Assembly: GCA_025928955.1 (NCBI GenBank)
Contig: JAICNA010000003.1
Span: forward strand, 1-34,879
DNA from: Gemmatimonadales bacterium
GTDB lineage: Bacteria > Gemmatimonadota > Gemmatimonadetes > Gemmatimonadales > GWC2-71-9
Reading direction: 5' to 3'
DNA: 34,879 bases
Both the position numbers and the translations under genes were made by a program. Each line of letters begins with the position of its first letter. The first letter of the stretch is position 1. The notes under the pieces are model-generated. The model was not told the origin of the DNA. It did not search any database and was given only the letters and a program-made list of their open reading frames with translations. Positions 172 through 26,428 of this stretch are shown here, in pieces.

Positions 172-789
172 ATGGCCCAGCCGTCGCGACACCAGGTCTT
201 TCTGCTCTCGCCCGCGCATTGCGGCGGCAAGCGCGCTCAGCTCCTCATGAACGAGAGGGCGAGCTTTCCGCTCGCGGAGCGCCTTCGCTCCCCGGAAGGC
301 CTCCCACTCGGCGAAGCATTCAGTTTCCTGAGCGGCCTCTATTTCCGTGGGAAGCTCGCGTACGCGGCTCGCTTCGGTACGCCGCACCAGGGACGGCCCG
401 GCGCCCTCGTGATCACGGCGAACCGCGGACTGGTGCCCGCCGGCACGGCGATCGACCTTGCCGAGCTGCGCGAATTCGGGAGCGTGGACATCCGTGCGGA
501 CGACGAACGGTATCGCGAGCCGCTCGTCCGCGATGCGACCACCCTCGCCGAGGATCCGGATACCGCCGTCGTGCTCCTGGGGAGCGTGGCGACGGGAAAG
601 TATGTGGACGTGCTGCTCGACATCTTCGGCGAGCGGCTGCTCTTCCCCGTGCAGTTCGTGGGGCGGGGAGACATGAGTCGCGGAGCGCTCATGCTCCGTG
701 CCGCGCGTGAAGGCACGGAGCTCGACTATCAGCCGGTGGCCGGCGCAGTGCGCCGCGGCCCCCGCGCGGCACGGATCGGAGAACGCTGA
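172..789 (+). CDS. Hypothetical protein, possibly YaaA/DUF6884-like; first gene of the repair operon
   Basis: 205 aa with protein-like composition; stop overlaps the next start (TGATG, 787-791). The segment SGLYFRGKLAYA...ALVITANRGLVP loosely resembles DUF6884/YaaA-type motifs (family call tentative). Confidence 0.75.
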   Translation: MAQPSRHQVFLLSPAHCGGKRAQLLMNERASFPLAERLRSPEGLPLGEAFSFLSGLYFRGKLAYAARFGTPHQGRPGALVITANRGLVPAGTAIDLAELREFGSVDIRADDERYREPLVRDATTLAEDPDTAVVLLGSVATGKYVDVLLDIFGERLLFPVQFVGRGDMSRGALMLRAAREGTELDYQPVAGAVRRGPRAARIGER

Positions 790-6504: not shown

Positions 6505-6681
6505 CGGCCGCCCGCGGCCCTTCCCCCGCCTCCAAAGGGGGTCCTATGTTCCCGTGAGCGACGCATCAGCGCGCACGCGGCTCCGCCACGACACGCCACC
6601 GAGGGCATCGCCATCCCCACCTTCGAACTTCCCCGCTCCGTATCGCGACTCCTTCGCCGCCGGGCGGACCCGCACGAGACG

Positions 6682-9600
6682 GTGCTGGCCGGCCCGATTC
6701 GCGGTGACCTCCTCGGCGCCGAGCGCCTGGCCGAGCGGGCGCAGGCCCTCGCCAAGTCGCAACGGCTCGCCAGAGGGGGGCGCCGGAAGACCCCGCTGCT
6801 CGCGCGGCTGGACAGTACGCGGAGCATTCTCGCCGGCGCCCATCGCCGACTGCTCGATGCGGCGGACAGCGGCCGCGAAGTGGGACCGGCGGGCGACTGG
6901 CTGCTCGACAACTACTACGTCGTCCAGGAGCACATCGGCGAGGTGCGGGAAAGCCTCCCGAGCGGCTATTACCGCGAGCTTCCGGAACTGGCCACCGGAT
7001 CGCTCGCGGGATATCCGCGGGTGTACGAGCTGGCGATCACGCTGATCTCGCATACCGAAGGGCGAATCGACCTCCAGAACACATCGAGCTTCGTGGGCGC
7101 CTTCCAGCAGTCGGCGACGCTCACCATCGGCGAGCTCTGGGCGATTCCGGCGATGCTCCGCCTCGGCCTGATCGAGAACGTGCGGCGCATGGCGCTCCGG
7201 ACGGTCCAGCGGCTCGACAGCCTCGAAGCTGCGGATGCCGCGGCGGCCGGGATCCTGGCCGCCCAGGCCGACGAGCCGGCGCTCGAAGCCGCCTTGCAGG
7301 ACTTCATCTCGAGACGCCCGCCGCTCGACGCGATCTTCGTCTCGCGATTCCTGCATCAGCTTCGGTCCGAAGGCGGTGCACACCCGACGCTCCGCCGCCT
7401 CGAGCAGTGGGTGACCGAGGAGGCGTTCGGCGCTGAGGAAGCGACGTCCCGCTCGACGCAGCGGCTCGCCCTCACGCAGATCGCCATGGCGAACAGCATC
7501 TCCAGCCTCCGCGCCGTCGGACGGATGGACTGGAAGACGTTCGTCGAAGCGCAGAGCCGGATCGAGCACATCCTGCGCGCCGATCCCTCCGGGGATTACG
7601 CGCGCATGACATTCGCCACCCGCGACCGGTACCGGCACGTCGTCGAGAACATGGCGCGGCGGACTCGCAAGCCGGAGACCGCGGTGGCGGAGCTCGCCAT
7701 CGAGTGCGCGCGCCACGGCGCCGCCCTTCATCCCGGCGCCGCCCGCTACGCCCACGTCGGCTACTACCTCGTGGACGACGGGGTTGCCGAGCTCGAGCGG
7801 CTGACCGGCTACCGGCCCCATATCCGCGAGGGCCTGTACCGCTGGGTGCATCGTCACCCGGACGTGGTCTTCGTGGGCGGAGTCGCCGCCGCGACCGCGG
7901 CGGCGCTGGCCGCCCTCCTCTGGCTCGGCGGAGCGGGGGTGCGCACCGAGTGGCTCGCCGCGCTGCTCCTGGCGTTCATCCCCGCGAACGACATCGCCGT
8001 CAACGTGGTGAACCAGCTCGTCACGGCGCTGCTGCCGCCACGGCTCCTTCCGAAGCTCGACCTCCGGGAGCACGGAATTCCCCCCGAGTTCCGGACCGCG
8101 GTCGTGATCCCGACGCTCTTCGCGAGCCTGGAGGCGGTCGAGGAATCGCTCGAGAACCTCGAAGTGCAGTTCCTGGCCAACCGGGAAGCGCACCTGCATT
8201 TCGCGCTGCTCAGCGACTTCACCGATGCACCGACGGAGACACGCCGGGGGGACGAAGCGATCGTCGCCGCCGCGGCCGACGGCATCCGCGAGCTCAACCG
8301 CCGGTATGCCGCCGCGACCGGCGACGCCTTCTATCTCTTTCATCGCCCGCGGCGCTGGAACCCGCAGGAAGGCGTCTGGATGGGATGGGAGCGGAAGCGG
8401 GGGAAGCTCGCGGAGTTCAACCGCTTCGTGCTCGGTGAGGAAGGGAGCGGGTTCTCGACGATCGTCGGCGACGTCACGCCGCTCCGGAGCGTCCGGTACG
8501 TCATCACCCTCGATTCCGACACGGTGCTCCCGCCCGAGGCGGCTGCGCTGCTCGTCGGCGCGCTCGCGCATCCGCTCAACCGGGCCGAGTACGACCCCGC
8601 GCGCGGGCGCGTGGTTCGCGGCTACGGGATCCTGCAGCCCCGCGTCGGCGTGTCGCTGCCGAGTGCGCACCGTTCGCTCTTCGCCTCGATCCATTCGGGG
8701 CATCCCGGCGTCGATCCATACACCACCGCGGTATCGGACGTATACCAGGACCTGTACGGCGAAGGGAGCTTCGCCGGGAAGGGCGTCTACGACGTCGCCG
8801 CATTCGAGCAGGCCACGGGTGGCCGCTTCCCCGAGAACGCGCTCCTCTCGCACGACCTGATCGAAGGGAACTACGCGCGGGCCGGCCTCGCCACGGATGT
8901 GATCGTCTACGATGATTACCCCGCCCGATACCTCACCTATACCCGGCGCAAGCATCGCTGGACGCGCGGCGACTGGCAGCTGCTTCCCTGGCTCCGCCGC
9001 CGCGTGCCCGCGGCCGGGGGCCGCGAGCCCAACCGGCTCTCGCTGCTCTCGCGATGGAAGATCGTGGACAACCTGCGCCGGAGTGTCGTGGAAATCGCGC
9101 AGCTCACGTTCCTCCTCGCCGGCTGGCTGTTCATGCCGGTGACGCCGATCCGGTGGACGCTCGTCGGGCTCGGCGCGATCGCGGCTCCGTGGGTCGTGTC
9201 GCTGCTCCTCGCGATCGTGCGCCCGCCGTTCGACAAGTCGTGGCGCGCGTATTACGGAGCGGTGGCGCGCGACGCCGCGACGAGCGCCAAGCAGTTCGCG
9301 CTCGCCGTGGTCTACCTGCCGCATCAGGCGTGGAACTCGGCCGACGCGATCGTCCGCGCGCTGTGGCGCATGGCGGTATCCCGGAAGCACCTCCTCGAAT
9401 GGCAGACCGCGGTGCAGACCGAGCGGTCGACCGAGGATTCCGCGAGCGTGGTGTGGCGCGCCATGTGGCCCGCCGCGCTCGTCGCGGCGCTGGTGCTCGC
9501 GATCATCCTCTGGCGCGCAGCGCCCGGCAGCTCGCATCCGGCCCCGCTCTGGCAGCTGGGTGTCGGGCTCCTCACGCTCGTCATCGCCTGGGCCGTGTCC

Positions 9601-12600
9601 CCCGCCATCGCGCATGCCCTCGGCGCGCCGGCCATCGCCCGCGAACAGCGGCTCTCGCCGGACGCGAGAGGGCAGGTGATCCGGTACGCCCTGTTGCACT
9701 GGCGGTACTTCGAGACCTTCGTGACGGCCGAGACGAACTGGCTGGCGCCGGACAACTTCCAGGAAGACCCCACGCCCACCGTCGCGATGCGCACGTCGCC
9801 CACGAACATCGGGCTGCAGCTCATTTCCACGGTGAGCGCGGCGGACCTCGGCTTCATCGGGATCGGGCAGGCCGCGGAGCGGCTCGAGCGCGCCCTCCGC
9901 TCGCTCGAGCGGATGCGGCGATTCCGCGGGCACTTCTACAACTGGTACGGCCTCGCGGACCTGCACGTCCTCGAGCCGGGCTACATCTCGACGGTGGACA
10001 GCGGCAATCTCGCCGGGCACCTGATCGCGCTCCGGCAGGGCTGCCTCGAGCTGATCGAGACGCCGGCGGTCGATGCGCGGCTCATCAGGGCCGTCGAAAC
10101 GGCGCTCGATCTCTGCGAGCTCGCCCTGCTGGCCGCCCGCAACGCCCCAGAGGCGGATGGTGCCGAGCGGGCCGCTCGCAAGATTCCCGGCGAACTCGGT
10201 GCGGCGCGAGCCGCCGCGAAGGAGGCGCGCCGGGCACCGGTCTCGACGGCGGGGATCGAGAGCCTGGCCCAGCTGCTCCGGCGCGCGGAAGCCGCGCTTC
10301 GCGCAGACCGCGCCGAGGATGCCTACTGGGTGAGCTGGTCCCTCGCGCTCCTCGAGGCGCAGCGTCCCTGGATCTCGCTCGCCGAGCGGCAGCCCGCCGC
10401 GACGCTGCGCGAGCTCGCGCGCGATTCGGCGGAGGCCGCACGCCTCGTGTCGCGCCTCGAGGCGCTCGGTGAGCGGGCCTTCCAGTATGCGATGGACATG
10501 GACTTCCGCTTCCTCTTCGACGAGCAGCGACGCCTCTTCGCGATCGGGTTCCAGCAGACGAGCCACACCCTCGATGGATCCTATTACGACCTGCTCGCGT
10601 CCGAGGCCCGGCTCGCGAGCTTCGTGGCCATCGCCAAGAACGACGTGCCGGTCGAGCACTGGTTCCGCCTCGGGCGGACGCTCACGCGGGCGAGCGGCGC
10701 GCCGGCGCTCGTGTCGTGGAGCGGCAGCATGTTCGAATACCTCATGCCGATGCTGGTGATGCGGTCGTTCCCCTTCACGGTGCTGGCGGAAACGTACGAA
10801 GGGGCGGTGCAGCGGCACGCGTCATACGGCGCCGAGCGTAATGTGCCGTGGGGCGTGAGCGAGAGCGCTTACAACGTGCGGGACCGCACCTACACTTATC
10901 AGTACCGCGCCTTCGGCGTCCCCGACCTCGCCCTCAAGCGCGGCCTCGGTCGCGACCTCGTCGTGGCACCGTACGCGTCGATCCTGGCCGCGATGGTCGA
11001 GGCGCGCCGGGCCCTGCCGAACCTCATCCAGCTCGAGTCCCTGGGCCTGCTCGGCCCCTACGGGTTCCGGGAGGCGGTCGACTTCACGCGCCCCGATCCC
11101 GAGAAGGAGTTCGCGGTCGTCCGCGCCTACATGGCCCATCACATCGGCATGGGGCTCGTGGCGCTGACCAACATCCTCGCCGGGCAGGTCTGGCAGCGGC
11201 GATTCCACGCCGACCCGATGGTGCGCGCCGCGGAGCTGCTCCTGCACGAGCGCATCCCGCGGCGGCTCGTGATTCACCGGGCGCAGGGCGCGCGCCTCGA
11301 CGAGGCGCTGCCCGAACCGGAGATGGAGCGGCCCGCCGTCCGCGAGATCGAATCGGCGGACACGCGACGCCCGCACGTGGCGCTGCTTGGCCAGCTCCCA
11401 TACACGATCATGATCAGTCATTGCGGCGGCGGCTACAGCCGGTACGGGGGCATGGCCGTGACCCGCTGGCGCTCGGACGGGACGCGCGACGCCACCGGGC
11501 AGTTCTGCTACGTGCGCGACAACTCGACCGGGCAGGTCTGGTCGGCAACGCACCAGCCGGTCGGCGCCACGGCGGACTGGTACCGCGCCTACCTGGCCAC
11601 CGATCGCGTGACCGTGCACCGCGCGGACGGCGAGATCGAGACGCGCACCGAGATCGCGGTGGTACCCGAAGACTCCGCGGAGGTGCGGCGCGTGACGGTG
11701 ACGAACAACTCCGACGCCGTCCGTGAGGTCGACCTCACGAGCTATGGCGAGATCGTGCTCGCGGCGCCCGAGTCGGACCGCGCGCACCCCGCGTTCGGCA
11801 ACCTCTTCGTCGAGACCGAGTATCACGCGTGGTGCTCCGCGATCACCGCCACGCGGCGCCCGCGCTCCGGCAAGGAGCAGCCGATCTGGTGCGTGCACGT
11901 GGTCGCGACCGGCAGCGAGCGCGCCGACGCGGTGACGTGCGAGACCGACCGCGCGCGCTTCCTCGGCCGCGGGCGGACGACGGCCGATCCGGTGTCCGTG
12001 GAGAACGGGACACCGCTCTCCGGCACCACCGGCGCGGTGCTCGATCCCATCTTCGCGCTGCGCGTCCGGCTCCGGCTGGAGCCGGGTCAGGCGGCGAGCG
12101 CCTCGTTCACGACGCTCATTGCCCCGAATCGCGAACGGGCATTCGAGCTGGCGGATCGCTACAACGATCCGCATGCAGCCCAGCGGGCACTCGACCTCGC
12201 CTGGACCTCCACGCAGATCGAGCTCCGGGAGCTCGGCGTGACGCCCACGGAAGCGGCGGTGTTTCAGGAGCTGGCAGGCGACCTCCTCTATGGCGCAGCC
12301 GCGCGTCGCGCGACGCAGGCCGAGCTCCGGCTCAACCGCGGATCGCAGCCCCTGCTCTGGGCCAACGGCGTCTCGGGCGACTGGCCGATCCTCCTCGCGA
12401 CGATCGAGTCCGCCGAGGGCCTGCCGACGCTGCGCCAGCTCCTCACGGCGCACCGGTACTGGCGCCGGCGCGGCATGACGGTGGACCTCGTGATTCTCAA
12501 GACGCAGCCCTCGCAATACCTGGGGGATCTGTCCGAGCGGGTCACGGCGCTGCTGCACACGGTGGGCGAGAGCGGCGTGTTCGACCAGTCGGGCGGCGTC

Positions 12601-15324
12601 TTCATTCGCCAGGCGGACCAGCTCGGCGCCGACGAGCTCGCCATGCTGCGCGCCACTGCCCGTCTCCACGTCAACTGCGACGGCCGCGCGCTCGGGAGGA
12701 TTACCGAGGCCGCCGCGCCGTACGACGCGGCCGATCAGGATGAGGAGGAGTCGGCAGCGGCGCCCGACGAGCCGCGGAGCCCGGAGCGGCGGCGCCAGTC
12801 CCGCGTCGCGCGCGCGGTCCGGCGCCTCGGCGGGGCCCTTCCGTCGTTTCTCGCGCCGCTCGGCCCCGGGTCGGCGCCGGCCCATCCGCCGGGACCGGGC
12901 GCCGGCGCGCGCCACAGCGCGACGCCGGGGCTCGAGAACGGATTCGGGCGGCTCGCGCCGGATGGCGCGTACGAGATCGAGGTCGCGGGCGATCGCGTAC
13001 CGCCGGCACCATGGATCAACGTCGTCGCGAACCGCGCGGGCGGGTTCATCGTGTCGGAGCGCGGCGGCGGATGCGCCTGGGCGGAGAACAGCTTCTTCTA
13101 CCGGCTCACGCCGTGGCACAACGATCCGGTGAGCGATCCGGTGACCGACGCGATCTACCTGCAGGACTCGGCGAGCGGCGCACTCTGGACGGCGACACCC
13201 GGACCGGTGGACACCGGCGCGACGTTCACGGTCCGCCACGGACCGGGATATTCGTCGTTCGAGTCGGTGCACGATACGATCCGGACGCACCTCACGCTCG
13301 GCATGGCGGACGAGGCGCCGATACGCGTCTCGGTGCTCCGGGTCACGAACGAGGGCGCTGCCCCGCGCAGCCTCACGGTCACCAGCTATCTCGAATGGGC
13401 GCTCGGCGCGCTGCGTGAGCACACCCAGCACACCATCCGCACGGAGTTCGACGCCGGCACGGGAACGATCTACGCGTCGAACACGTTCGACCCCAGCTTC
13501 GCGTCGTGGCTGGCGTTCCACTCCATCAGCGCGGCCGTGTCGGCCCATACCGCGAGCCGGCGGGACTTCCTCGGCAGGAACGGATCACCGGCCGCACCCG
13601 CTGCGCTGGTGCACGGAGAGCCACTGGGCGGGCGAACAGGCGTCGGCAAGGACCCCTGTGCGGCGCTCCAGTGCCTGCTCGAGCTCGATCCGGGCGAGAC
13701 GCGGGAAGTCGTCCTCATCCTCGGCGCGGCGGCGTCGGCGGAGGAGGCCCGGCGCCTCGTGGCGGAACACCGTGACGGGCGCGTGGCGCGCGCTGCGCTC
13801 GACCGGTCCATCGAGGGGTGGTCCCGGCGGCTCTCGGTGGTGCAGGTCCGCACTCCCGAGCCGACCTTCGACGCGATGCTCAACCAATGGACCCTCTATC
13901 AGGCGCTCGCCTGCCGGATGTGGGGGCGGACGGCGCTCTATCAGAGCAGCGGCGCCTACGGATTCCGCGACCAGCTCCAGGACTCGATGGCCTTCCTGCA
14001 CGCCGAGGCGGGCGTCTCGCGCGAGCACCTGCTCCGTGCCGCGTCACGGCAGTTCCTGGAGGGGGATGTGCAGCACTGGTGGCATCCGCATAACGGGCGC
14101 GGTGTCCGGACGCGGTTCTCCGACGACCTCGCGTGGCTTCCGTTCGTCGTCGAGCATTACGTCGGCGTCACGGGGGACACTGCGGTGCTCGACGAACAGG
14201 TGCCGTTCCTGTCGATGCGGCTGCTCGAGCCGGAGGAACACGAGGTCTACGACCTGCCGGAGGTCGTGGCGCAGCGCGCGTCCCTCTACGACCATTGCCT
14301 TCTCGCGCTCCGGCGCGCGTGCACGACGGGAGCGCACGGCCTCCCGCTGATCGGCATCGGCGACTGGAACGACGGGATGAACCGGGTGGGGGTGGAGGGG
14401 CGCGGCGAAAGCGTGTGGCTCGCCTGGTTCCTGATCACGACCCTGCGGAGATTTGCCGCGCTCGCCGATGCGCGCAGCGACGACGCGACGGCATCCGAGC
14501 TTCGCGCGCAAGCCGATGCCTATGCCGCCGCCGTCGAGATGCACGCCTGGGACGGCGCCTGGTATCGCCGGGCGTGGTTCGACGACGGCACGCCGCTCGG
14601 ATCGTCGGAGAGCGAGGAGTGCCGGATCGATTCCATCGCGCAGAGCTGGAGCGTGATCTCCGGTGCCGGCGCGCCCGGGCGGCAGGCGCAGGCGATGCAG
14701 TCACTCGAGACGCACCTCGTGCGGGAGGACGCCCGCCTGCTCATGCTGCTGACGCCGCCGTTCGACAAGACGCCGCTCGATCCCGGGTACATCAAGGGCT
14801 ACCTGCCCGGGGTGCGCGAGAACGGGGCGCAATACACCCATGCGGCGCTGTGGGCGGTGCTGGCGACGGCGCTCCAGGGCAACGGAGACCGGGCGCTCGA
14901 GCTGTACCAGATGATCAATCCGCTCACGCACGCCCGAACGCCGGCTGACGTCGCCACCTACAAGGTGGAACCGTATGTCGTCGCGGCGGACGTCTACACG
15001 GCCGAGGGGCACCTGGGCCGCGGCGGTTGGACGTGGTACACCGGGTCGGCAAGCTGGATGTACCGGATCGGCCTCGAGGGCATCCTGGGACTCGAAAAGC
15101 GCGGGAATTCCCTCCACATCCAGCCACGCGCCCCCGCCGCATGGCAGGAGTACCAGATCGAGTACCGCTTCGGTGGAAGTACCTACGCCATCACGGTGCG
15201 GCGAGACGCCGGCACGACGTCGGTCGTCGCAGCCGTGGACGGCACGGAAACTCCGGACGGAAGCATTCCGCTCGTCGACGATGGACGGCGGCACGACGTC
15301 GTGGTGCGCCGGCCGGCGACGTGA
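6682..15324 (+). CDS. ndvB: Cyclic beta-1,2-glucan synthase (Cgs/NdvB/ChvB: GT84, cyclase domain, GH94-like phosphorylase)
   Basis: About 2880 aa. WLLDNYY, WMGWERKRGKL, YVITLDSDT, LLSHDLIEG, RWTRGDWQL, TM helices, PDNFQE, TSPTNIG, YYDLLASEAR, SWSGSMFEYLMP, WGVSES; GH94 motifs YQSSGAYGFRDQLQD, GDWNDGMN, ENGAQYTH, WYTGSA. Exact start is uncertain. Confidence 0.95.
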   Translation: MLAGPIRGDLLGAERLAERAQALAKSQRLARGGRRKTPLLARLDSTRSILAGAHRRLLDAADSGREVGPAGDWLLDNYYVVQEHIGEVRESLPSGYYRELPELATGSLAGYPRVYELAITLISHTEGRIDLQNTSSFVGAFQQSATLTIGELWAIPAMLRLGLIENVRRMALRTVQRLDSLEAADAAAAGILAAQADEPALEAALQDFISRRPPLDAIFVSRFLHQLRSEGGAHPTLRRLEQWVTEEAFGAEEATSRSTQRLALTQIAMANSISSLRAVGRMDWKTFVEAQSRIEHILRADPSGDYARMTFATRDRYRHVVENMARRTRKPETAVAELAIECARHGAALHPGAARYAHVGYYLVDDGVAELERLTGYRPHIREGLYRWVHRHPDVVFVGGVAAATAAALAALLWLGGAGVRTEWLAALLLAFIPANDIAVNVVNQLVTALLPPRLLPKLDLREHGIPPEFRTAVVIPTLFASLEAVEESLENLEVQFLANREAHLHFALLSDFTDAPTETRRGDEAIVAAAADGIRELNRRYAAATGDAFYLFHRPRRWNPQEGVWMGWERKRGKLAEFNRFVLGEEGSGFSTIVGDVTPLRSVRYVITLDSDTVLPPEAAALLVGALAHPLNRAEYDPARGRVVRGYGILQPRVGVSLPSAHRSLFASIHSGHPGVDPYTTAVSDVYQDLYGEGSFAGKGVYDVAAFEQATGGRFPENALLSHDLIEGNYARAGLATDVIVYDDYPARYLTYTRRKHRWTRGDWQLLPWLRRRVPAAGGREPNRLSLLSRWKIVDNLRRSVVEIAQLTFLLAGWLFMPVTPIRWTLVGLGAIAAPWVVSLLLAIVRPPFDKSWRAYYGAVARDAATSAKQFALAVVYLPHQAWNSADAIVRALWRMAVSRKHLLEWQTAVQTERSTEDSASVVWRAMWPAALVAALVLAIILWRAAPGSSHPAPLWQLGVGLLTLVIAWAVSPAIAHALGAPAIAREQRLSPDARGQVIRYALLHWRYFETFVTAETNWLAPDNFQEDPTPTVAMRTSPTNIGLQLISTVSAADLGFIGIGQAAERLERALRSLERMRRFRGHFYNWYGLADLHVLEPGYISTVDSGNLAGHLIALRQGCLELIETPAVDARLIRAVETALDLCELALLAARNAPEADGAERAARKIPGELGAARAAAKEARRAPVSTAGIESLAQLLRRAEAALRADRAEDAYWVSWSLALLEAQRPWISLAERQPAATLRELARDSAEAARLVSRLEALGERAFQYAMDMDFRFLFDEQRRLFAIGFQQTSHTLDGSYYDLLASEARLASFVAIAKNDVPVEHWFRLGRTLTRASGAPALVSWSGSMFEYLMPMLVMRSFPFTVLAETYEGAVQRHASYGAERNVPWGVSESAYNVRDRTYTYQYRAFGVPDLALKRGLGRDLVVAPYASILAAMVEARRALPNLIQLESLGLLGPYGFREAVDFTRPDPEKEFAVVRAYMAHHIGMGLVALTNILAGQVWQRRFHADPMVRAAELLLHERIPRRLVIHRAQGARLDEALPEPEMERPAVREIESADTRRPHVALLGQLPYTIMISHCGGGYSRYGGMAVTRWRSDGTRDATGQFCYVRDNSTGQVWSATHQPVGATADWYRAYLATDRVTVHRADGEIETRTEIAVVPEDSAEVRRVTVTNNSDAVREVDLTSYGEIVLAAPESDRAHPAFGNLFVETEYHAWCSAITATRRPRSGKEQPIWCVHVVATGSERADAVTCETDRARFLGRGRTTADPVSVENGTPLSGTTGAVLDPIFALRVRLRLEPGQAASASFTTLIAPNRERAFELADRYNDPHAAQRALDLAWTSTQIELRELGVTPTEAAVFQELAGDLLYGAAARRATQAELRLNRGSQPLLWANGVSGDWPILLATIESAEGLPTLRQLLTAHRYWRRRGMTVDLVILKTQPSQYLGDLSERVTALLHTVGESGVFDQSGGVFIRQADQLGADELAMLRATARLHVNCDGRALGRITEAAAPYDAADQDEEESAAAPDEPRSPERRRQSRVARAVRRLGGALPSFLAPLGPGSAPAHPPGPGAGARHSATPGLENGFGRLAPDGAYEIEVAGDRVPPAPWINVVANRAGGFIVSERGGGCAWAENSFFYRLTPWHNDPVSDPVTDAIYLQDSASGALWTATPGPVDTGATFTVRHGPGYSSFESVHDTIRTHLTLGMADEAPIRVSVLRVTNEGAAPRSLTVTSYLEWALGALREHTQHTIRTEFDAGTGTIYASNTFDPSFASWLAFHSISAAVSAHTASRRDFLGRNGSPAAPAALVHGEPLGGRTGVGKDPCAALQCLLELDPGETREVVLILGAAASAEEARRLVAEHRDGRVARAALDRSIEGWSRRLSVVQVRTPEPTFDAMLNQWTLYQALACRMWGRTALYQSSGAYGFRDQLQDSMAFLHAEAGVSREHLLRAASRQFLEGDVQHWWHPHNGRGVRTRFSDDLAWLPFVVEHYVGVTGDTAVLDEQVPFLSMRLLEPEEHEVYDLPEVVAQRASLYDHCLLALRRACTTGAHGLPLIGIGDWNDGMNRVGVEGRGESVWLAWFLITTLRRFAALADARSDDATASELRAQADAYAAAVEMHAWDGAWYRRAWFDDGTPLGSSESEECRIDSIAQSWSVISGAGAPGRQAQAMQSLETHLVREDARLLMLLTPPFDKTPLDPGYIKGYLPGVRENGAQYTHAALWAVLATALQGNGDRALELYQMINPLTHARTPADVATYKVEPYVVAADVYTAEGHLGRGGWTWYTGSASWMYRIGLEGILGLEKRGNSLHIQPRAPAAWQEYQIEYRFGGSTYAITVRRDAGTTSVVAAVDGTETPDGSIPLVDDGRRHDVVVRRPAT

Positions 15325-18955: not shown

Positions 18956-20275
18956 ATGAGACGTCTCGCCGCATCGATTCGCCGCCGCCTCGGGGCCCGC
19001 CGCATCCCACTCCCACCCGGCCAGGCGGGTGACGAGCTGCGCGAGCGCGTGCTCGGCACCGCTCCCCGCCTCGAGCGCATCCTCTTCGAGAACATCCTGC
19101 CCTTCTGGTACCCGCGCGTCCTCGACCTGAAGCACGGTGGCTATCACCTGAATCACGGCCCCGACGGCACATCGCTCGGCCCGGCGCGGAAGAGCCTCGT
19201 CGGGACGGCCCGGACGCTCTGGTTCTTTTCCAGGATGGCACGTGCGGGGCACCAGCGCGATGCGATGCTGGAGGCGGCCCGGCACGGGTACGACTTCCTC
19301 GTGACGAGCTTCCTCGATGACCGGCACGGCGGGTTCTACTGGCACGTTTCCGAGGACGGCGCGGTGCCGCTCGATGCGACGAAGCATCAGTACGGACAGG
19401 CGTTCGCGATCTTCGCCCTCGCGGAATACGCGATGGCGACGGGATCCGAAGGGCCTGCACTGGTCGCGGAGGAGGCCTGCGAGCTGGTGGAGCTGCACCT
19501 GCGCGATCCGGAGCGCGGCGGATACTGGGACCAGCTCGAGCGGACCTGGGGGCCGGGGGCGCTCGAGCCGACCCGCACGCGAGGCGGCGCCAAGTATCTC
19601 GGCTCGATGCACCACCTGATGGAGGCGTACACCTGGCAGGCCCGGGCGCGGCCGGGGTCCATCGCAGCCGCCCGTCTCCCGGAGCTCATCCTCGTCTGTG
19701 CGAATGCGGTCGTCCGCATGCGGGAAGGCGCGCTGACCGACGCGCACCGACCCGACTGGTCGCCGCTCCTCGATGAGGAGCACGCGCGCGTCTCCTACGG
19801 TCACGACATCGAGACGATCCATCTCCTCATCGCCGCATGCGAGGCCGCGGGCGTCACGCCGCACGTGCTCTCCGGCCTCTATCGCGCGCTCCTGCAGAAC
19901 GCGCTGGCGCACGGGCACGACCGGCGGAAGGGCGGCTTCCACTACATGGGGCCGCTCGGGAAGCGGGCGGATCGCCGCGAGAAGATCTGGTGGGTACAGG
20001 CGGAGGCACTGCTCGGTACTCTCGAGATGTACCGGATCACCGGCGATCGCGCGCCCGCCGAGACGTACCTCTCTACGCTGGGCTGGGTCGAATCACGGCA
20101 GGTGGACTGGACGCATGGAGAGTGGCACGCGACCGTGCCCCCGCGCGGCCGCCCCTACGGCAGGAAGGCCGACGCCTGGAAAGGGCCGTACCACTCCGGC
20201 CGCGCGGTCATTCACTCACTGGAGGCGCTGGCGGCGCTGAGGGCGCCACGCGACGGCGACCGATCGAGCGCTTGA
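18956..20275 (+). CDS. AGE family epimerase (cellobiose 2-epimerase-like)
   Basis: NILPFW, ARTLWFFS, GGFYW, KHQYGQAFAIFALAEY, HLMEA, SYGHDIE, WWVQAE, WKGPYHSGRA. Start could also be 18917. Confidence 0.9.
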   Translation: MRRLAASIRRRLGARRIPLPPGQAGDELRERVLGTAPRLERILFENILPFWYPRVLDLKHGGYHLNHGPDGTSLGPARKSLVGTARTLWFFSRMARAGHQRDAMLEAARHGYDFLVTSFLDDRHGGFYWHVSEDGAVPLDATKHQYGQAFAIFALAEYAMATGSEGPALVAEEACELVELHLRDPERGGYWDQLERTWGPGALEPTRTRGGAKYLGSMHHLMEAYTWQARARPGSIAAARLPELILVCANAVVRMREGALTDAHRPDWSPLLDEEHARVSYGHDIETIHLLIAACEAAGVTPHVLSGLYRALLQNALAHGHDRRKGGFHYMGPLGKRADRREKIWWVQAEALLGTLEMYRITGDRAPAETYLSTLGWVESRQVDWTHGEWHATVPPRGRPYGRKADAWKGPYHSGRAVIHSLEALAALRAPRDGDRSSA

Positions 20276-20936
20276 GCATGGTGAACATGTCCTCCGCGCT
20301 CGCGTTCCAGTTGGCGGTGAGGTTCCGCCCGTGCCTGCGACGGCGGACGAGGACGTCCGGCACGCATTCGGTCACGATGCCCGCCTCCCGCGCCCGGAAG
20401 TGCCAGTCGGTATCCTCGCCGGTGCGGAGCGCCGGGTCGAACGGCCCGATCCGGTCGAACAGCTCCCGCCGCATGAGCATCAGCGGTGGACCATGCGCGA
20501 GATGCGGCTGCGCGAGCCACGTGTCCCGCGCCCGCTCCTCGATCTCCCTGAGCTCCGGCTCCCAGAAGTTCTGGAGGTAGCCGACGCAGAGGTCGATCGA
20601 CGGATTGCGTCGGAAGCAGTCCATCTGCCGCTCGAGCTTGTCCGGCACCCAGAGGTCGTCCGCGTCCTGGAAGGTGAGCCATCCCCCGCGCGCTTCCGCC
20701 ACGCCGCGGTTGCGCGCAGCCGAGGGGCCGGCGTTCGGCTGGAAGAACGTGCGGATCCTGTCGCCGAACCCCGCGAGGATGTCCTCGGTCCCGTCGGTGG
20801 ACCCGTCGTCGACCACGATGACCTCGAGGGGTCGGTAGGCCTGCGCCAGGACGCTCTCGATGCTCGCGGCGACGAATCGTGCCCCGTTGTACACAGGGAT
20901 GACGCAGCTGACGAGGTCCGGATCGTATCGGGTCAC
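20208..20936 (-). CDS. GT2 (family A) glycosyltransferase
   Basis: VSCVIPVYN, VVDDGSTD, NAGPSAARNRG, FQDADD, GEDTDW. Confidence 0.92.
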   Translation of the reverse strand: MTRYDPDLVSCVIPVYNGARFVAASIESVLAQAYRPLEVIVVDDGSTDGTEDILAGFGDRIRTFFQPNAGPSAARNRGVAEARGGWLTFQDADDLWVPDKLERQMDCFRRNPSIDLCVGYLQNFWEPELREIEERARDTWLAQPHLAHGPPLMLMRRELFDRIGPFDPALRTGEDTDWHFRAREAGIVTECVPDVLVRRRRHGRNLTANWNASAEDMFTMLKRSIGRRRVAPSAPPAPPVSE

Positions 20937-21631
20937 GAGGACGGCACCTCCTTCCGTCGGTCCTTGTTGCGCTTGAGCAGCGCGAGAAATTCGTCGCGGC
21001 TCTGCGGGGCGGCCTTCCGCGAGCGGTTGTTCGCGTGGATGCGGCGGCGCAGGAGCACGTCTGGCAGCAGCTCACCGCGCAGGCCGGCCTCCCGGGCGCG
21101 CAGGAACCAGTCGGCCGAATCGCCGTGGCCGAGCTCGGCGTTCATCGGGCCGACGCGGTCGAAGGCCGCCCGCCGCGCGAGCAGCGTCGGCGACACCCAT
21201 CCCGCGATCGGCTCCGAACGCCGGTGGCCCCTGTAGCGGTCCGCCTCGTCCTGCATCTCCTCGACCCAGAAGTTCTGCACGTGCGCCACGCAGAAATCGA
21301 GCTCCGGTTTCGCGTCGAGCAGCGCCAGCTGCACCGCCAGCTTCTCCGGTGTCCACAAGTCGTCGGAGTCGTTGAAGGCGATGAAGTCGCCGCGCGCCAC
21401 GCCGAGGCCGGTGTTCCGCGCGACGGCCGGTCCGGCGTTCGCCTGGCGCAGGCCGCGGACCCGGTCGCCGAAGCGGCGGATCACGGCAGGGGTTCCATCC
21501 GTGGAGCCGTCGTCGACGACGATGATCTCGAGCGGCCGATGCGCCTGGGCGAGGATGCTCTCGATCGACTGCGCGAGGTATGCCTCGCAGTTGAACACCG
21601 GGACGATGCAGCTCACCAGGGGACTGCTCAT
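20933..21631 (-). CDS. GT2 (family A) glycosyltransferase
   Basis: VSCIVPVFN, VVDDGSTD, NAGPAVARNTG, FNDSDD; 4-nt overlaps with both neighbours. Confidence 0.92.
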   Translation of the reverse strand: MSSPLVSCIVPVFNCEAYLAQSIESILAQAHRPLEIIVVDDGSTDGTPAVIRRFGDRVRGLRQANAGPAVARNTGLGVARGDFIAFNDSDDLWTPEKLAVQLALLDAKPELDFCVAHVQNFWVEEMQDEADRYRGHRRSEPIAGWVSPTLLARRAAFDRVGPMNAELGHGDSADWFLRAREAGLRGELLPDVLLRRRIHANNRSRKAAPQSRDEFLALLKRNKDRRKEVPSS

Positions 21632-22689
21632 TCGGCCTCTCCGCGGAGCATGCGGCCGATCGCGTCGGGAATGCCCGGCAGATCGGATCCGAGCTCCAGC
21701 CAGTAGGTGGGTACCGATTCGACGAGCGCGGCCATCGTGTCGAAGCGGGCGCGGCCGGCGCCCAGGAACGGAAGCTGGAACAGTGAGCTGGGCGCGAGCT
21801 GCTTCAGCACGGCAACCTTCGACGCGGGGCGGAATCGCGTCTCGACGCGCGGCACCACGCGCGGAAGCGCAATGGCACGAATCGCCGCGCCGTTGGCGAA
21901 TCCTTCCGGAAACAGCCCCGACAGAAGGACCATGTGCTTGTCTTCGCGCTCGAGCTTCCCCGGCATCGCGTGCGGCACGAGGTCGGGAAACCGCTGGAGG
22001 TGGTGTGGCTCGAAGTGGCTCGATGAATAGAGGCTGTGGCCGAACCAGGTGCCGTCGTCCCGCCGCTCGAGTCCGACATAGTCGTCGGCGAGGTACTGGT
22101 AGCCGGCCCGGAGGCACGTCACGGCCGTCGTCGTCTTCCCCGATCCTCCCGGTCCGCCGAAGAGCACGCCTTCACCGTCGCGGGCGACGAGACCGGCATG
22201 CACGGCCTGGATCCCGCGATCGCGCATCCAGAGGAGGAGCGACGCATGGAGCGGGCGGCCGAGCTCGTACTGGGTGAGCCGTTCCGCCGAGCTCACCCAG
22301 CCGGTCTTCGCGCTCGCCTGGCGGTCGGAGAGCGTCACCGTGCACGGGCTCTGCTGCTTTACGTGCCGTCCGCCGTCGTAAACCATCACGGTGCCGTGAG
22401 CGTTCGGGTCGCTCCCCTCGACGCAATCCTCACAGCCCACGCCTGTCGCCGCTTCGTCCCACAGGTCGATCGTGAGATCGGGCGCGGCGGCGCTTTCGGC
22501 AGCGCGAAGGTGGGCGAGCGGCCGGTCGTATGCGTCGCCGAGTGCGCGTCCGGCGAACCGCATCCGCACCGGACGTCCGGCGATGCGGTAGTCTCGCACC
22601 ACGACCTGGTCCGGTTGGGCCGCGCAGGCCGCGCGGAACGCGCCCGACAGCCGCTCGTACGTGGCGACACCAGCCGCGCTGGAATTCAT
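21628..22689 (-). CDS. HPr-kinase-related P-loop kinase (lasso-peptide-kinase-like)
   Basis: VHAGLV (His), Walker A GPGGSGKTT, YLADDY (DD motif); SD GGAG; ATGA overlaps at both ends; 353 aa. Confidence 0.85.
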   Translation of the reverse strand: MNSSAAGVATYERLSGAFRAACAAQPDQVVVRDYRIAGRPVRMRFAGRALGDAYDRPLAHLRAAESAAAPDLTIDLWDEAATGVGCEDCVEGSDPNAHGTVMVYDGGRHVKQQSPCTVTLSDRQASAKTGWVSSAERLTQYELGRPLHASLLLWMRDRGIQAVHAGLVARDGEGVLFGGPGGSGKTTTAVTCLRAGYQYLADDYVGLERRDDGTWFGHSLYSSSHFEPHHLQRFPDLVPHAMPGKLEREDKHMVLLSGLFPEGFANGAAIRAIALPRVVPRVETRFRPASKVAVLKQLAPSSLFQLPFLGAGRARFDTMAALVESVPTYWLELGSDLPGIPDAIGRMLRGEAE

Positions 22690-23903
22690 GCGATCTCCGC
22701 CTCGAGGGAGCCCGGCATCCTGACCCGTCGCACGCGCTCGCGGAAGGCGGCGATGCCATGGTGCCAGATCCGGTATGGGTAGAGCAGTGGAACCGGCAAT
22801 CGCCGGCCGCGGTAGGCGTGACGCAGGTACGACGCCGAGGGGAAGAGCAGCCAGCCGAGTGCCCAGAGCCTGGGCCGAACACCTCCCGGGACGCGACGCA
22901 CGAGTGCGAGCGCCGGCAGCCCGGCCCGAGCCCCGTAGAGCGCAATGTCGCGGGCGATCGGCGAGGCCTCGCGTGCCAGGCTGTCGAGCCGATCGAGCAC
23001 CGCTCCCGGGATCGGACTCTCGAGCTCTTCCGCGAGATAGCGCAGCATCACCGAAACCGGCAGCGCAAGGCGCGCTGCTGCAGCTCCGCTGACGGCGACT
23101 TCCCAATCGATCTCGGGACCGCGATGGATCAGCAGCCATGCATCGATGACCCATCGAAGACTCCCGCGAACCGGGCTCTGCGACGCGCCGCCGCAGATGT
23201 GCAGGAGCTGGTCGGCGGCGCCGAGCGTCCGCACGCGCTCGCCGAGCAGGGCGCGCCGCTCGGCGCGACCGTGCATCCCGGGGAGCTCCGCGGCATAGTA
23301 CGGATCGAGAAAGAGCGATGAGTGGATCTCGACCGGGAGACCCGACGGATGTACCAGGCGGACGCCGCCCGGCAGACGATCGGGATCGTCGGCCCGCTCC
23401 GTGAACCCTGCCGCCCGCGCGGCATCCACGGCGCGCTCGAGTTCGGCGGGCGGAACGAAGAGGTCGATGTCGTGGGTGTGGCGGCGGAACGGCTCCGGAT
23501 ACACCGTCTCGGCCAGCACGATCCCGCGCAGGAGGATCGCATCGACGCCACGATCCGCGAGTGATGCGATCAGGCTGCGCGCGAGTCGCCGCACGGTCTC
23601 GTAGCGAACCCGCTCGCGCGCGGCGGCCATGCGGAGCACCCGCAGGGAGTCGCCGCCGACGTGCGGTGCGCCATCGGCGTCCGCCGCCCTCGCTTCGAGC
23701 AACGGGCTCAGCGTCCGCAGCGCGGCCCGCTGCGGGGCCGGGAGGAGCTGCGGCCGCTCGAGCTCGGGCGCAATGCCGGCGAGCGCGCGGCGACCCGCTT
23801 CACCCCGAAGGAGCGCAGCGCGGAGCAGCCGCGTCTGCCCGCCGTCGGGCAGCAGCAGCGCGAGGCCCGACGTGAGAGCGGCCTCGCGAGCAGTCACAGC
23901 CAT
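22686..23903 (-). CDS. Nucleotidyltransferase family protein (NTP_transf_5-like)
   Basis: ILLRGIVLAETVYPEPFRRHTHDIDLFV, VEIH, DQLLHIC, LRWVIDAWLL, IDWE. Confidence 0.85.
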   Translation of the reverse strand: MAVTAREAALTSGLALLLPDGGQTRLLRAALLRGEAGRRALAGIAPELERPQLLPAPQRAALRTLSPLLEARAADADGAPHVGGDSLRVLRMAAARERVRYETVRRLARSLIASLADRGVDAILLRGIVLAETVYPEPFRRHTHDIDLFVPPAELERAVDAARAAGFTERADDPDRLPGGVRLVHPSGLPVEIHSSLFLDPYYAAELPGMHGRAERRALLGERVRTLGAADQLLHICGGASQSPVRGSLRWVIDAWLLIHRGPEIDWEVAVSGAAAARLALPVSVMLRYLAEELESPIPGAVLDRLDSLAREASPIARDIALYGARAGLPALALVRRVPGGVRPRLWALGWLLFPSASYLRHAYRGRRLPVPLLYPYRIWHHGIAAFRERVRRVRMPGSLEAEIA

Positions 23904-23912
23904 GGCGAGAGA

Positions 23913-24350
23913 TTATCCGGCGACGGTCGCGTCGCCCCAGGCCGACTCGTCGAGCCCGGGCATCGGAGGATCGAGTGCGAGCAGGTCCGCCATGTCGGTG
24001 AACTTCTGCAGCGACGGCGTGGCGTATTCGGCCTGCATGCTCACGTACGGGACCGCAGCTGGAGCGGGGCGCTCGGCGACGACCAGAAGCTCCTCGGCGA
24101 GGAGGTCATCGACGACGGCGTCGACGTCGCGCTCGAGCATCTCACGCGCCACGTCGAAGCGCTCGGCGAGCGCGGAGACGGATTCCTCGCGGCTGCACCC
24201 CTGCTCGAGCAGCTCCCAGAGCGCGGCGCCTACGCCGTCCATGCTGTAATACGCTCCGGTCGCCAGGTTCATGATGATGGCTTCGCCATCGATCACCTTG
24301 CCGGTCACGTCGCCGCTCCGGAGCTGATATCGCACCGCTGCATCGGACAT
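23913..24350 (-). CDS. PqqD-family RiPP recognition element (RRE) with a fused C-terminal leader-like peptide
   Basis: SD GAGG. The first ~90 aa (VIDGEAIIMNLATGAYYSMDGVGAALWELL...LAERFDV...DVDAVVDDLLAEELL) match the PqqD pattern; tail EYATPSLQKFTDMADLLALDPPMPGLDESAWGDATVAG; 145 aa. Confidence 0.88.
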   Translation of the reverse strand: MSDAAVRYQLRSGDVTGKVIDGEAIIMNLATGAYYSMDGVGAALWELLEQGCSREESVSALAERFDVAREMLERDVDAVVDDLLAEELLVVAERPAPAAVPYVSMQAEYATPSLQKFTDMADLLALDPPMPGLDESAWGDATVAG

Positions 24351-24405
24351 CGTTGGCCTCGTTTGAAGTTCCAGGGTTGGTACGTGCCCTGAGCAGAAAG
24401 CGGGC

Positions 24406-25635
24406 CTACGGAAGGGTTCTCCAGACGCCGAGGTCGCGCCGGCCCGTGTCGGTCGCCAGGCCGAGCGGCGCGCAAAGCGCGATCCAGCATTGGTATAGCG
24501 CGAGCGAAAGCGCCAGCCGCGCGCCGGTGCCGCCCCGTCGCCGGGCGCCGTCCGGATCGTCGGCTCCCTGCCAGACCCACTCCAGCGGCTCCTCCTCACC
24601 GGCCATCAGCCGCCTCAGATGTTGCGTCCGCGCGGCACCGGCAGCGAGCCAGATCTCCTGCAGGAATGCGCCGAGCCCGCGCTCCGGCCCGGTTCCCCTC
24701 GCGATCCCTGATACCGGTGTGAGCAACGCCAGCGCCGCCTGCGCCGCGCGACCGACACCGAGGCGGCGCACCAGGTCGGAAGGGACCGCGGTGCCGAGCA
24801 GGCGATGCGACAGCTGGAGCGACAGCGCCACCGGCGCACCGAGGCCGCCGCGCCTCGCTTCCGCAACCACGGCATCCCAGTCGATCGGGTGTGCCGCAAT
24901 CACCCGGTCGAGATCCACCAGGCGGCGGAGCTTGGAGAAGTGATCCTCGGTGTTCTGCGAGGACAGGTGGAGCACCATGTGCTCGGCACACGGAACGCGC
25001 GCCACCCCGCCGCCGAACTCGACGCGCTCGGCGCGCGCGATGAACTCCCGCGCATCGAGCCGGTGGGTGCTCACGTCGGGCGTCAGCGCCCAGTGCAGCT
25101 CCGCTTCGAACCCGTTCGGGTGATGGAGCGGCAGGTGGAAGTGGTGATCGCGAAAGCCGTCGATCACCGCCTGCGAATCGGGCATCCGGTATCCGGCCGC
25201 CACGAGCCGCTCGACGACGCGATCCATTTCCGCGTCGGGGACGAGGAGGTCGAGGTCGCCGACCGGCCGCTCGACGGGATTGCGATAGGTCGTGAGGCGG
25301 AGCGCAGCGCCCTTGAGCAGGACCGGCGAGAGCCCCTCGCGCGCGAGGAGGGCGAGGACGCGATCGCGCTCCATGTCCCAGAGACGGGCCTGCTGAGCGA
25401 GGGTCCGGAGCGGCGCCGTGATCGCGCTCGAGGTCGCGGCATCGAAGCCATGCGGCGCGCGCGATCGGAAGGCGGAAAGCACCAGGCCCAGCACGCCCTG
25501 GCGCATCGCATAGGCGTGGAACGCACCGCGATCGGCCGCCCGCCCCAGCGGACGCAGCTGGTCGGAATCCAGCTGCTCGGACGCATCCCGGCGGCTGAGC
25601 GCGAGCGTGAGCTCGAAGGCTTCTCCGATCTTCAT
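24406..25635 (-). CDS. Nucleotidyltransferase family protein (NTP_transf_5-like)
   Basis: SD GGGAG; PVLLKGAAL...Y..PVERPVGDLDLLV, ELHWAL, EHMVLHL, LRRLVDLD, IDWD. Confidence 0.87.
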   Translation of the reverse strand: MKIGEAFELTLALSRRDASEQLDSDQLRPLGRAADRGAFHAYAMRQGVLGLVLSAFRSRAPHGFDAATSSAITAPLRTLAQQARLWDMERDRVLALLAREGLSPVLLKGAALRLTTYRNPVERPVGDLDLLVPDAEMDRVVERLVAAGYRMPDSQAVIDGFRDHHFHLPLHHPNGFEAELHWALTPDVSTHRLDAREFIARAERVEFGGGVARVPCAEHMVLHLSSQNTEDHFSKLRRLVDLDRVIAAHPIDWDAVVAEARRGGLGAPVALSLQLSHRLLGTAVPSDLVRRLGVGRAAQAALALLTPVSGIARGTGPERGLGAFLQEIWLAAGAARTQHLRRLMAGEEEPLEWVWQGADDPDGARRRGGTGARLALSLALYQCWIALCAPLGLATDTGRRDLGVWRTLP

Positions 25636-25807
25636 TCAGGCTCCCGGCGCGAATGACGCCCAGTTCCCGTGGCGGCGGTGCGAATTGCTCGAAATCGTTC
25701 GAATGGCCACGCACACGCCCCAGGCGGCGGTGGCGGCGGGCGTGGCGCGGACGAACTGCAGGAAACGTGCACGACGGCTCGCCCCCGATCGGCCCGCAGG
25801 GAGCACC

Positions 25808-25840
25808 TTGCCTCCGGCGTAATTAGATGTATATACATCT
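25808..25840 (+). promoter_or_regulatory. marR promoter with a perfect 16-bp palindromic operator
   Basis: AGATGTATATACATCT (25825-25840) is its own reverse complement; TTGCCT at 25808-25813 as -35, with a TATATA/TATACA -10 inside the palindrome; ATG 3 nt downstream with no SD. Confidence 0.75.
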
Positions 25841-25843
25841 TTC

Positions 25844-26428
25844 ATGGAGCCCCATCGTACGGCAGCCGCGGCCATGACGGCCGACTGTCTCTGCTTCCGC
25901 GCCCGCCGCGTCTCCCGCGTCATCACGCGCCTCTATGACGAGTCGCTGCGCCCCCTCGGCATCCAGGCGACCCAGCTCACCCTGCTCAATGCCATCGCCA
26001 TGAGCGGCGAGCGTGGCGCCATGATGGGGCGGCTCGCCGACGTGCTCGCGCTGGACGCGACGACGCTCTCGCGGAACCTCCGCCCGCTCGTGGCGCTGAG
26101 GCTCGTGAAGCTCGCCCGCCCGCCGGGTGACCGGCGCGTCCGCCTCGCCCGACTGACGCCGGCGGGCGAGCGGCTCGTCGCGGAGGCGCTTCCCCTCTGG
26201 ACGAGCGCCCATCGGCGGGTAGTCTCCATGCTTGGTCCGGAGGCCGCAGCGGAGCTGCGCGACCTGTTCGATGTTGCCGCGGCAGCTGCTGCCGACTCAC
26301 CTCTCCCGGTTCCGGAGCCATCGCATGACGAGCACGATCCCGATTCCCCGAGTCGTCCCGCGCGACGAGTGGCTGGCAGCACGCAAGGCGCTCCTCGTCG
26401 AGGAAAAGGCGCTCACCCGCGCGCGTGA
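25844..26428 (+). CDS. MarR family transcriptional regulator (CxC type)
   Basis: DCLCFRARRVSRVITRLYD, QLTLL, LDATTLSRNL, DRRVRLARLTPAG. The 3' end overlaps the next gene by 104 nt. Confidence 0.88.
   Translation: MEPHRTAAAAMTADCLCFRARRVSRVITRLYDESLRPLGIQATQLTLLNAIAMSGERGAMMGRLADVLALDATTLSRNLRPLVALRLVKLARPPGDRRVRLARLTPAGERLVAEALPLWTSAHRRVVSMLGPEAAAELRDLFDVAAAAAADSPLPVPEPSHDEHDPDSPSRPARRVAGSTQGAPRRGKGAHPRA

Follow-up and report, generated by a model that had tools for sequence, protein, structure and literature searches.

What do peptide-tailoring enzymes act on when their operon encodes no free precursor and the leader-type motif is fused to the very protein that would recognize it? This question is raised by a six-gene operon of a Gemmatimonadales bacterium (assembly GCA_025928955.1), located on the minus strand at 20208-25635 of the 34,879-nucleotide stretch of contig JAICNA010000003.1 that was analysed here and is referred to as the window. 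What defines a pathway for ribosomally made, post-translationally modified peptides (RiPPs) is a free precursor with a leader to which a RiPP recognition element (RRE) binds. The cassette departs from this scheme, with its leader-type motif fused to the RRE, the peptidase and the cyclase gone, and a post-leader segment that is invariant under about 14 phylum labels. We tentatively read it as a self-contained tailoring pathway, resembling that of the linear polyphosphorylated peptides (LPPs), which may act on, or be organized by, the fused tail.

An RRE fused to a conserved leader-like tail

The operon consists of six co-directional open reading frames (ORFs), all in frame and each with one terminal stop, whose junctions are gaps of 55 and 9 nucleotides (nt) followed by three 4-nt ATGA/GTGA overlaps. 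The genes, with protein lengths in amino acids (aa), are as follows.

24406-25635, minus strand: NTase1, a nucleotidyltransferase (NTase) of 409 aa, ATG start, PF14907 (NTP_transf_5)
23913-24350, minus strand: the PqqD+tail gene, encoding the RRE-tail protein of 145 aa, ATG start, 55 nt gap from NTase1
23952-24026, minus strand: the tail motif, residues 109-133 of the RRE-tail protein
22686-23903, minus strand: NTase2, 405 aa, ATG start, PF14907, 9 nt gap from the PqqD+tail gene
21628-22689, minus strand: an HprK-like P-loop kinase, 353 aa, ATG start, 4 nt overlap with NTase2
20933-21631, minus strand: GT2a, a small family 2 glycosyltransferase (GT2) of 232 aa, ATG start, PF00535, 4 nt overlap with the kinase gene
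20208-20936, minus strand: GT2b, a second small GT2 of 242 aa, GTG start, PF00535, 4 nt overlap with GT2a

Checks of starts, stops and junctions confirm this layout as it was described in the original prediction, which had been made from the letters of the window, and Pfam matches to PF14907, PF05402 and PF00535 agree with its naming of two NTases, an RRE and two GT2s; its interpretation of the operon is partly supported.

The first 92 residues of the PqqD protein are a lasso-B1-type RRE. PF05402 (PqqD) covers residues 23-89 of the 145 (E 4.9e-17), the NCBIfam lasso_PqqD models stay under their cut-offs (49.2 vs 80 and 38.5 vs 70 bits), and a phmmer search of the PDB places TbiB1 first (1.1e-11), ahead of two RREs from the LPP study, 9x90 (4.9e-5) and 9x8z, which is LppB (1.5e-4). 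An AlphaFold2 (AF2) model built on an alignment of 102 homologs has a mean predicted local distance difference test score (pLDDT) of 83.6, and its best Foldseek matches are TbiB1-leader complexes, at 35-37% identity and a TM score of 0.85-0.90 on the target, followed by 6jx3. A protein search returned 452 homologs, the 120 listed spanning most of the query, and the ESM Atlas matches of the cassette protein fall exclusively into 'PqqD family protein' clusters. The source genome holds a single PqqD gene.

A variable Pro/Ala-rich linker separates the RRE from the tail, which is far more conserved than the RRE domain itself and is kept in 102/102 aligned homologs. Residues 109-133 follow the pattern Y-x-x-P-x-L-x-K-[YF]-x-D-M-A-D-L-L-A-L-D-P-P-M-P-G-L, in which a leader-like YxxPxL can be made out ahead of an invariant LALDPP-M-P block. 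In the alignment, Y109, M120, L124, A125, L126, D127, P128, P129 and P131 are each found in all 102 sequences, P112 in 101, M130 in 99 and L114 in 93. Lasso and LPP leaders use YxxPxL to bind B1 and LppB RREs, as the accessible text of the papers cited here and below describes it (PMC10368454, PMC13381572). The AF2 model places a strand at 115-117 and a helix at 120-125, with a pLDDT of 90 for the block 111-120. The LppB crystal structure shows leader residues -12 to -7 paired with the sheet of LppB (PMC13381572), and counting from the Tyr puts strand 115-117 inside this stretch, on account of which the model suggests that the tail docks on its own RRE. The fusion of an RRE to a peptide, as originally proposed, is upheld by these observations.

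A free-standing version of the tail was sought in several ways. A tail-only search among shorter proteins found none, its sole match being a 40-aa fragment, and a filter-free phmmer search with the 46-aa tail against 1.84 billion representatives gave 71 matches; among the 18 that were read, 16 derive from the fusion, as N-truncated pieces or artefacts at contig ends, and the other two (P0122/P0123) belong to an unrelated repeat protein. The short matches have their start within the RRE or at a contig end, and one of them bears an adaptor-like artefact. Against PDB sequences, the tail gave a chance-level match (E 1.2). A survey in which one genome per species was scanned yielded 70 related loci, or 71 with the window, and among ORFs of 25-69 aa near the cassette, none is conserved in more than three of these, the loci concerned being close relatives. 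Since both the tail searches and the small-ORF survey came back empty, the tail motif is seen solely in fusion with the RRE, with no free precursor in sight.

For three loci (L066 10001-10409, L067 9998-10361 and L069 10001-10397), tblastn matches just the N-terminal RRE part in one piece, and in L066 and L067 the ORF caller splits the RRE-tail gene in two; frameshifts or assembly errors may be responsible.

The enzymes and their recurrence in related loci

The HprK-related kinase of the original prediction keeps its catalytic motif and falls short of the family models. It scores 27.8 bits against Hpr_kinase_C (cut-off 33.3) and 36.8 bits against TIGR04352 (cut-off 200), the latter in the P-loop region only, to which the PDB profile matches to HPr kinase are likewise confined. 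In an alignment of 47 sequences, from which L064 (a stop codon in the reference) and kinase high-scoring segment pairs (HSPs) of less than 88% coverage were omitted, H164, G179, G184, K185 and D203 are invariant and G182, T187 and D202 near-invariant. The resulting motif, H...G..G.GK[ST]...DD, matches that of the lasso peptide kinases with Thr at the Ser position, and the H-G-G-G-K-S-D-D motif matters in BsfK and other members of that group (PMC10368454).

Prediction of a complex between the kinase and the RRE-tail protein supports binding of the two. The interface score ipSAE is 0.67 (runs 0.67, 0.67 and 0.72), with the best control at 0.37, and the mark applied is reached by 58/80 solved complexes and 2/110 mismatched pairs, counts that apply only approximately because the prediction used our own alignments. 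At least 58% of contacts are shared between runs, and the partner pLDDT is at least 76. The confidently modelled interface is formed by kinase residues 290-324 and residue 180, beside the P-loop, on one side and, on the other, by residues 13-38 of the RRE sheet and 117, 119-121 and 123-124 of the tail. Such binding would parallel the acceleration of BsfK by BsfB1 (PMC10368454).

PF14907, the family to which we take LppN and PsmN to belong, matches NTase1 at an E-value of 1.2e-43 and NTase2 at 3.6e-31 (HSPs of less than 60% coverage being left out of the NTase alignment). NTase1 is of an accessory type, which in those relatives that carry one lies upstream of the RRE gene; tblastn places NTase1-like genes there in a subset of loci (e.g. 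L003-L007, L014 and L017). The cassette of most relatives closes with an NTase of the NTase2 type. No PDB sequence matches NTase1, and the NTase2 model (AF2 pLDDT 90.2) has no Foldseek match at E ≤ 0.001; its weak neighbours, all with E > 0.001, have the NTase fold and include MenT1/3, ANT(2''), LnuA, JHP933 and FKRP. ANT(2'') is the distant relative that the authors of the pseudomycoidin work gave for PsmN, the enzyme needed for adding hexose to phosphorylated pseudomycoidin (PMC8498205, PMC6993621). The two glycosyltransferases match PF00535 (Glycos_transf_2) at 4.9e-34 for GT2a and 5.4e-34 for GT2b (118.1 and 118.0 bits, the cut-off being 23.3), and no NCBIfam equivalog reaches its cut-off for either. 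GT2a is 50-58% identical to cassette GT2s under other phylum labels (e.g. L016, L019 and L008).

The usual gene order in the surveyed loci is RRE-tail, kinase, one to several GT2s and then the NTase. ORFs of at least 70 aa were called by a longest-ORF caller, clustered by blastp (1e-8, 60% coverage) and named by Pfam, a procedure by which some genes are mislabelled or missed, and the 52 loci with at least 5 kb downstream were counted as well-flanked. A PF14907 NTase is present in 50/52 well-flanked loci (63/71 of all loci), a GT2 in 49/52 (62/71) and the kinase in 46/52 (60/71), with kinase, GT2 and NTase all together in 42/52. Family 4 glycosyltransferases (GT4s) are found in 36/52 (43/71). 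Less frequent are an MsbA-like ABC exporter (10/52; 11/71), an NAD-dependent epimerase (9/52; 14/71), a sulfotransferase (4/52; 5/71), a radical SAM/SPASM protein (3/52; 5/71), an HD-domain protein (3/52; 4/71) and a Wzt-type ATPase (1/52; 4/71). Because this gene set recurs beside PqqD+tail homologs in most of the 70 loci, the arrangement goes beyond chance, and synteny, a point on which the original prediction had staked itself, is conserved.

All 70 loci come from sequences titled as metagenome-assembled genomes (MAGs) under about 14 phylum labels, with no cultured carrier among them. Gemmatimonadota-type labels account for 29/70; the others are Binatia, Rokubacteria/Methylomirabilis, 'delta proteobacterium', Akkermansiaceae, several Acidobacteriota, Calditrichia, Chloroflexota, Nitrospirota, Planctomycetota, Alpha- and Gammaproteobacteria, Bacteroidetes/Ignavibacteriales, Actinomycetota and Vulcanimicrobiota. 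Two contigs that their record titles assign to one Rokubacteria MAG (L029 and L052) carry separate copies of the RRE-tail cassette. The largest glycosyltransferase complement among the surveyed loci is that of a Methylomirabilis MAG (L019, 4878-16201), where six GT2 paralogs, two GT4 genes and a radical SAM/SPASM gene surround the RRE-tail and kinase genes.

Neither a lasso cyclase nor a PF13471 (B2) peptidase cluster recurs in the 71 loci, and homologs accompanied throughout by a cyclase, a peptidase and a precursor, the pattern that would reduce the operon to a fragment of a known class, were not encountered. Among 10 of the 29 unclassified cassette-internal ORFs that were scanned, an Asn_synthase domain was seen in L032, together with a glutamine amidotransferase domain, and, weakly, in L054. 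The search for lasso genes called for at the outset found no PF13471 match in the assembled source genome, which is 78.5% complete, and three long AsnB-like genes, all of them on other contigs and none in the operon. None of the six proteins gave a PADLOC match to a defence system.

Apart from the ABC cluster, 28 heterogeneous ORFs with at least four predicted transmembrane segments lie within 3 kb in 23/71 loci; the 10 that were scanned comprise two Wzx-like proteins, two PMT_2, one GT87, one MFS, one MatE, one EamA and two without a family. This scarcity of membrane proteins fits a soluble acceptor. The statement that no transporter accompanies the operon is true of the window and has to be qualified for its relatives by the MsbA-like exporter.

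As originally described, the flanks are unrelated to the operon, with a convergent GlcNAc-2-epimerase-family gene on one side and a divergent MarR-DUF899-MatE set on the other; LigD genes, a DinB-family gene and a MacB-type permease gene lie farther away. GT2b (minus strand, stop at 20208) and the convergent epimerase-family gene (plus strand, stop at 20275) share 68 nt at their 3′ ends (20208-20275). Homologs of the latter gene also occur near the cassette in L003, L004, L013, L016 and L021, and that of L016 is co-directional and immediately upstream of a GT2. A scan of 19800-26300 found no promoter or terminator. The window, with a G+C content of about 70%, comes from a genome of 2.77 Mb in 248 contigs. 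Its plus strand carries at 5542-15324 an AAA ATPase gene (5542-6504) followed directly by an ORF of 2880-2940 aa with GH94 supersandwich and catalytic domains, a glucoamylase-like domain and a GT2 domain, an architecture that is presumably that of the cyclic beta-1,2-glucan synthases; at its left end (789-2806, plus strand) lie ordinary LigD primase-polymerase and ATP-dependent DNA ligase genes for non-homologous end joining. Near-identical operon DNA (0.94-0.98 of sampled words) is present in soil, rhizosphere and one 'plastic' metagenome run drawn from several studies, which makes the organism a widespread one in soils. None of the runs holding the operon is listed with certainty as RNA. Public-run contigs over the operon and its flanks, from four runs of unclear RNA or DNA status, are short, low-depth pieces.

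What the fused tail may do

On the reading that we tentatively favour, the operon would be a relative of the tailoring half of the phosphorylated lasso-peptide and LPP pathways, namely an RRE, an HprK-like kinase and a PsmN/LppN-type NTase-fold enzyme, joined here to soluble GT2s and, in relatives, to GT4s as well. Free precursor, leader peptidase and cyclase are all lacking, and the leader-type YxxPxL stands in cis, fused to the RRE. The RRE would hold its own tail, offering the D-M-A-D-L-L-A-L-D-P-P-M-P segment first to the kinase and afterwards to the remaining enzymes, with, by analogy, the tail as putative acceptor and kinase, NTase and glycosyltransferases as the supposed order. The most likely product would be an RRE-tail protein modified on or near the invariant segment through a phosphate linkage or with sugar, perhaps in the form of a short glycan. 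If the tail is indeed the substrate, the cassette represents a new use of RiPP machinery on a small protein, perhaps priming a glycan.

Several observations weigh against this reading, beginning with the acceptor. Across the 102 sequences, the tail has no conserved Ser or Thr, and the sole hydroxyl position besides the invariant Y109 is 118, occupied by Thr in 41, Asp in 25, Arg in 19 and Ser in 15. The residue at this position does not track kinase presence; Thr/Ser118 as a phospho-acceptor was rejected, the kinase being present with Arg118 in 14 loci and with Asp118 in seven. In the accessible text, Ser and Thr are the sole acceptors shown for HprK-like peptide kinases, and BsfK and LppK did not phosphorylate Tyr variants (PMC10368454, PMC13381572). 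Judging from Y-16 of LppA, Y109 would sit buried in the pocket of the RRE. The near-total invariance of the tail block is unlike typical RiPP cores and would also fit a docking or pseudo-substrate element. The several GT2 and GT4 genes, the epimerases and the few Wzx-like, Wzt and GT-C genes of the loci fit polysaccharide synthesis as well, there is no visible route to a released product because the window is without an exporter or peptidase, and binding of the kinase is supported by a prediction from our own alignments with one control at 0.37. The phosphorylation, nucleotidylation and glycosylation of the tail, as originally proposed, are not supported; no Ser or Thr is conserved, and position 118 varies independently of the kinase.

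A second reading, rather unlikely in our judgement, makes the RRE-tail protein an unmodified pseudo-substrate adaptor: the leader in cis would keep the RRE 'loaded', the invariant block with its Asp would mimic a phosphorylated substrate, and the fusion would assemble or activate a kinase-NTase-glycosyltransferase complex on a sugar, an oligosaccharide or an envelope glycan. LPP precursors have a Tyr at -16, are cleaved after T-1 and carry a polyphosphorylated Ser at +3, that is, at Y+18 (PMC13381572), a spacing which in the tail corresponds to D127, invariant in 102/102; this residue could be either a phosphomimetic pseudo-substrate or a carboxylate acceptor, and the correspondence is a count on motifs, not one from an alignment or structure, which tells against leaning on it. 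An adaptor would also account for the missing Ser or Thr, its invariance would fit a protein-docking element, and the GT4 genes in 43/71 loci and epimerases in 14/71, with Wzt, Wzx-like and GT-C genes in a few, point towards glycans, as does the placement of LPP and paeninodin clusters themselves in capsule loci, as far as their accessible descriptions go. Set against this, the neighbourhoods of the cassette show no recurrent priming phosphoglycosyltransferase, flippase or polymerase, and the kinase keeps its full catalytic motif, so something gets phosphorylated. Were the tail a pseudo-substrate, RiPP recognition parts would have been put to new use as a module that regulates or scaffolds glycosylation.

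More improbable is a role of the RRE-tail protein as a protein primer for glycan assembly, in which the kinase would activate or phosphorylate the Asp-Pro-Pro-Met-Pro segment, possibly with an acyl phosphate on Asp127, the NTase-fold enzyme would add a first sugar or sugar phosphate, and GT2 and GT4 enzymes would extend it. If true, this would mean a cytoplasmic peptide-anchored phosphoglycan built without undecaprenyl phosphate and the first natural RiPP leader fused to its own recognition element.

Also doubtful, to a still greater degree, is the idea that a separate peptide or protein encoded elsewhere is modified in trans, its leader displacing the fused tail. RREs normally bind free precursors, and with the source genome incomplete and spread over 248 contigs, genes may be missing; LPP precursors, moreover, are variable and 35-200 aa long (PMC13381572). 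Any such leader would, however, face competition from the cis leader at very high local concentration, and the idea also has to contend with the lack of a conserved small ORF near the cassette in the 71 loci, with a tail motif that is never found free-standing and with the single PqqD gene of the source genome.

Decay of an ordinary lasso-peptide cluster, to which the closeness of the RRE to lasso B1 proteins and the presence of a kinase and an NTase, both typical lasso tailoring genes (PMC8498205, PMC6993621), might point, is largely refuted and hardly credible: the assembled genome, 78.5% complete, has no PF13471 peptidase, its three long Asn-synthase homologs lie on other contigs, such homologs were met among the 10 scanned cassette-internal ORFs only in L032 and L054, and decay would not leave the fused form conserved across some 14 phylum labels.

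Relation to known systems

We take the HPr-rel-A system of TIGRFAM to consist of a TIGR04352 kinase with a PqqD-family protein. The cassette resembles it in having a PqqD-family protein beside an HprK-related kinase and differs in the score of that kinase, far below the TIGR04352 cut-off, and in the absence of TIGR04353 among the matches; of this system, cited in the original prediction as a known one, the kinase and the PqqD protein miss the two models. Literature searches on PF14907, on HPr kinase with PqqD and nucleotidyltransferase, on HprK-related kinase and on RRE with glycosyltransferase, which did not extend to supplements, returned no description of the cassette, and a search for 'LALDPP' returned reovirus papers only.

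The phosphorylated, and in part glycosylated, lasso peptides paeninodin, pseudomycoidin and Bsf are the next closest relatives after the LPPs (PMC8498205, PMC6993621, PMC10368454). With these, as far as their accessible descriptions go, the cassette shares a B1-type RRE and an HprK-like kinase with an H...G.G.GK[ST]...DD motif and, with pseudomycoidin, a PsmN-like NTase-fold enzyme, sulfotransferase genes being present in 5/71 related loci. Unlike them, it is without a linked cyclase C, a B2 peptidase or a separate precursor, has dedicated GT2 and GT4 genes, and offers in its tail neither a C-terminal Ser nor a core Ser3 as acceptor; the catalytic motif expected of a RiPP HprK-like kinase is in place, and a Ser/Thr acceptor in the bound peptide is not.

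The closest described system is that of the LPP clusters of Bacillota, lppA-K-B-S-D-N, whose core is an RRE, an HprK-like kinase and an NTP transferase in glycosyltransferase-rich capsule loci and which, according to the accessible text, are restricted to Bacillota (PMC13381572). This family was absent from the original prediction, and its existence lowers the novelty of the operon. Both systems have a discrete lasso-type RRE, a kinase that is HprK-like, an NTP transferase, an RRE-bound YxxP leader motif and a setting of glycosyltransferase genes, both are without a macrolactam cyclase, and an MsbA-like exporter is present in 11/71 of the loci related to the cassette. They differ in that the cassette has no free precursor, its leader-like motif being fused to the RRE, and no SpI-like (SipW-type) peptidase LppS in the operon or its flanks, whose genes all fall into other families, or recurring in the 71 loci, no genome-wide search for it having been made. 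The rest of the LPP precursor motif, YxxPxVLxHQxIxFETxxS with its phosphorylated Ser3 (PMC13381572), differs as well: the cassette has Asp and not Ser at Y+18, and a post-leader segment that is invariant and not variable. Furthermore, GT2 genes belong to its conserved core, and it is carried by Gemmatimonadota and under about 13 further phylum labels.

Finding an RRE naturally fused to a leader, with a tail that stays invariant across many uncultured lineages, was unexpected, and the cassette provides a defined, testable target for PF14907 enzymes. Whether the tail is substrate or pseudo-substrate, the LPP/paeninodin tailoring set, so far confined to Bacillota in the accessible accounts, extends to Gemmatimonadota, Acidobacteriota, Methylomirabilota, Actinomycetota and others.

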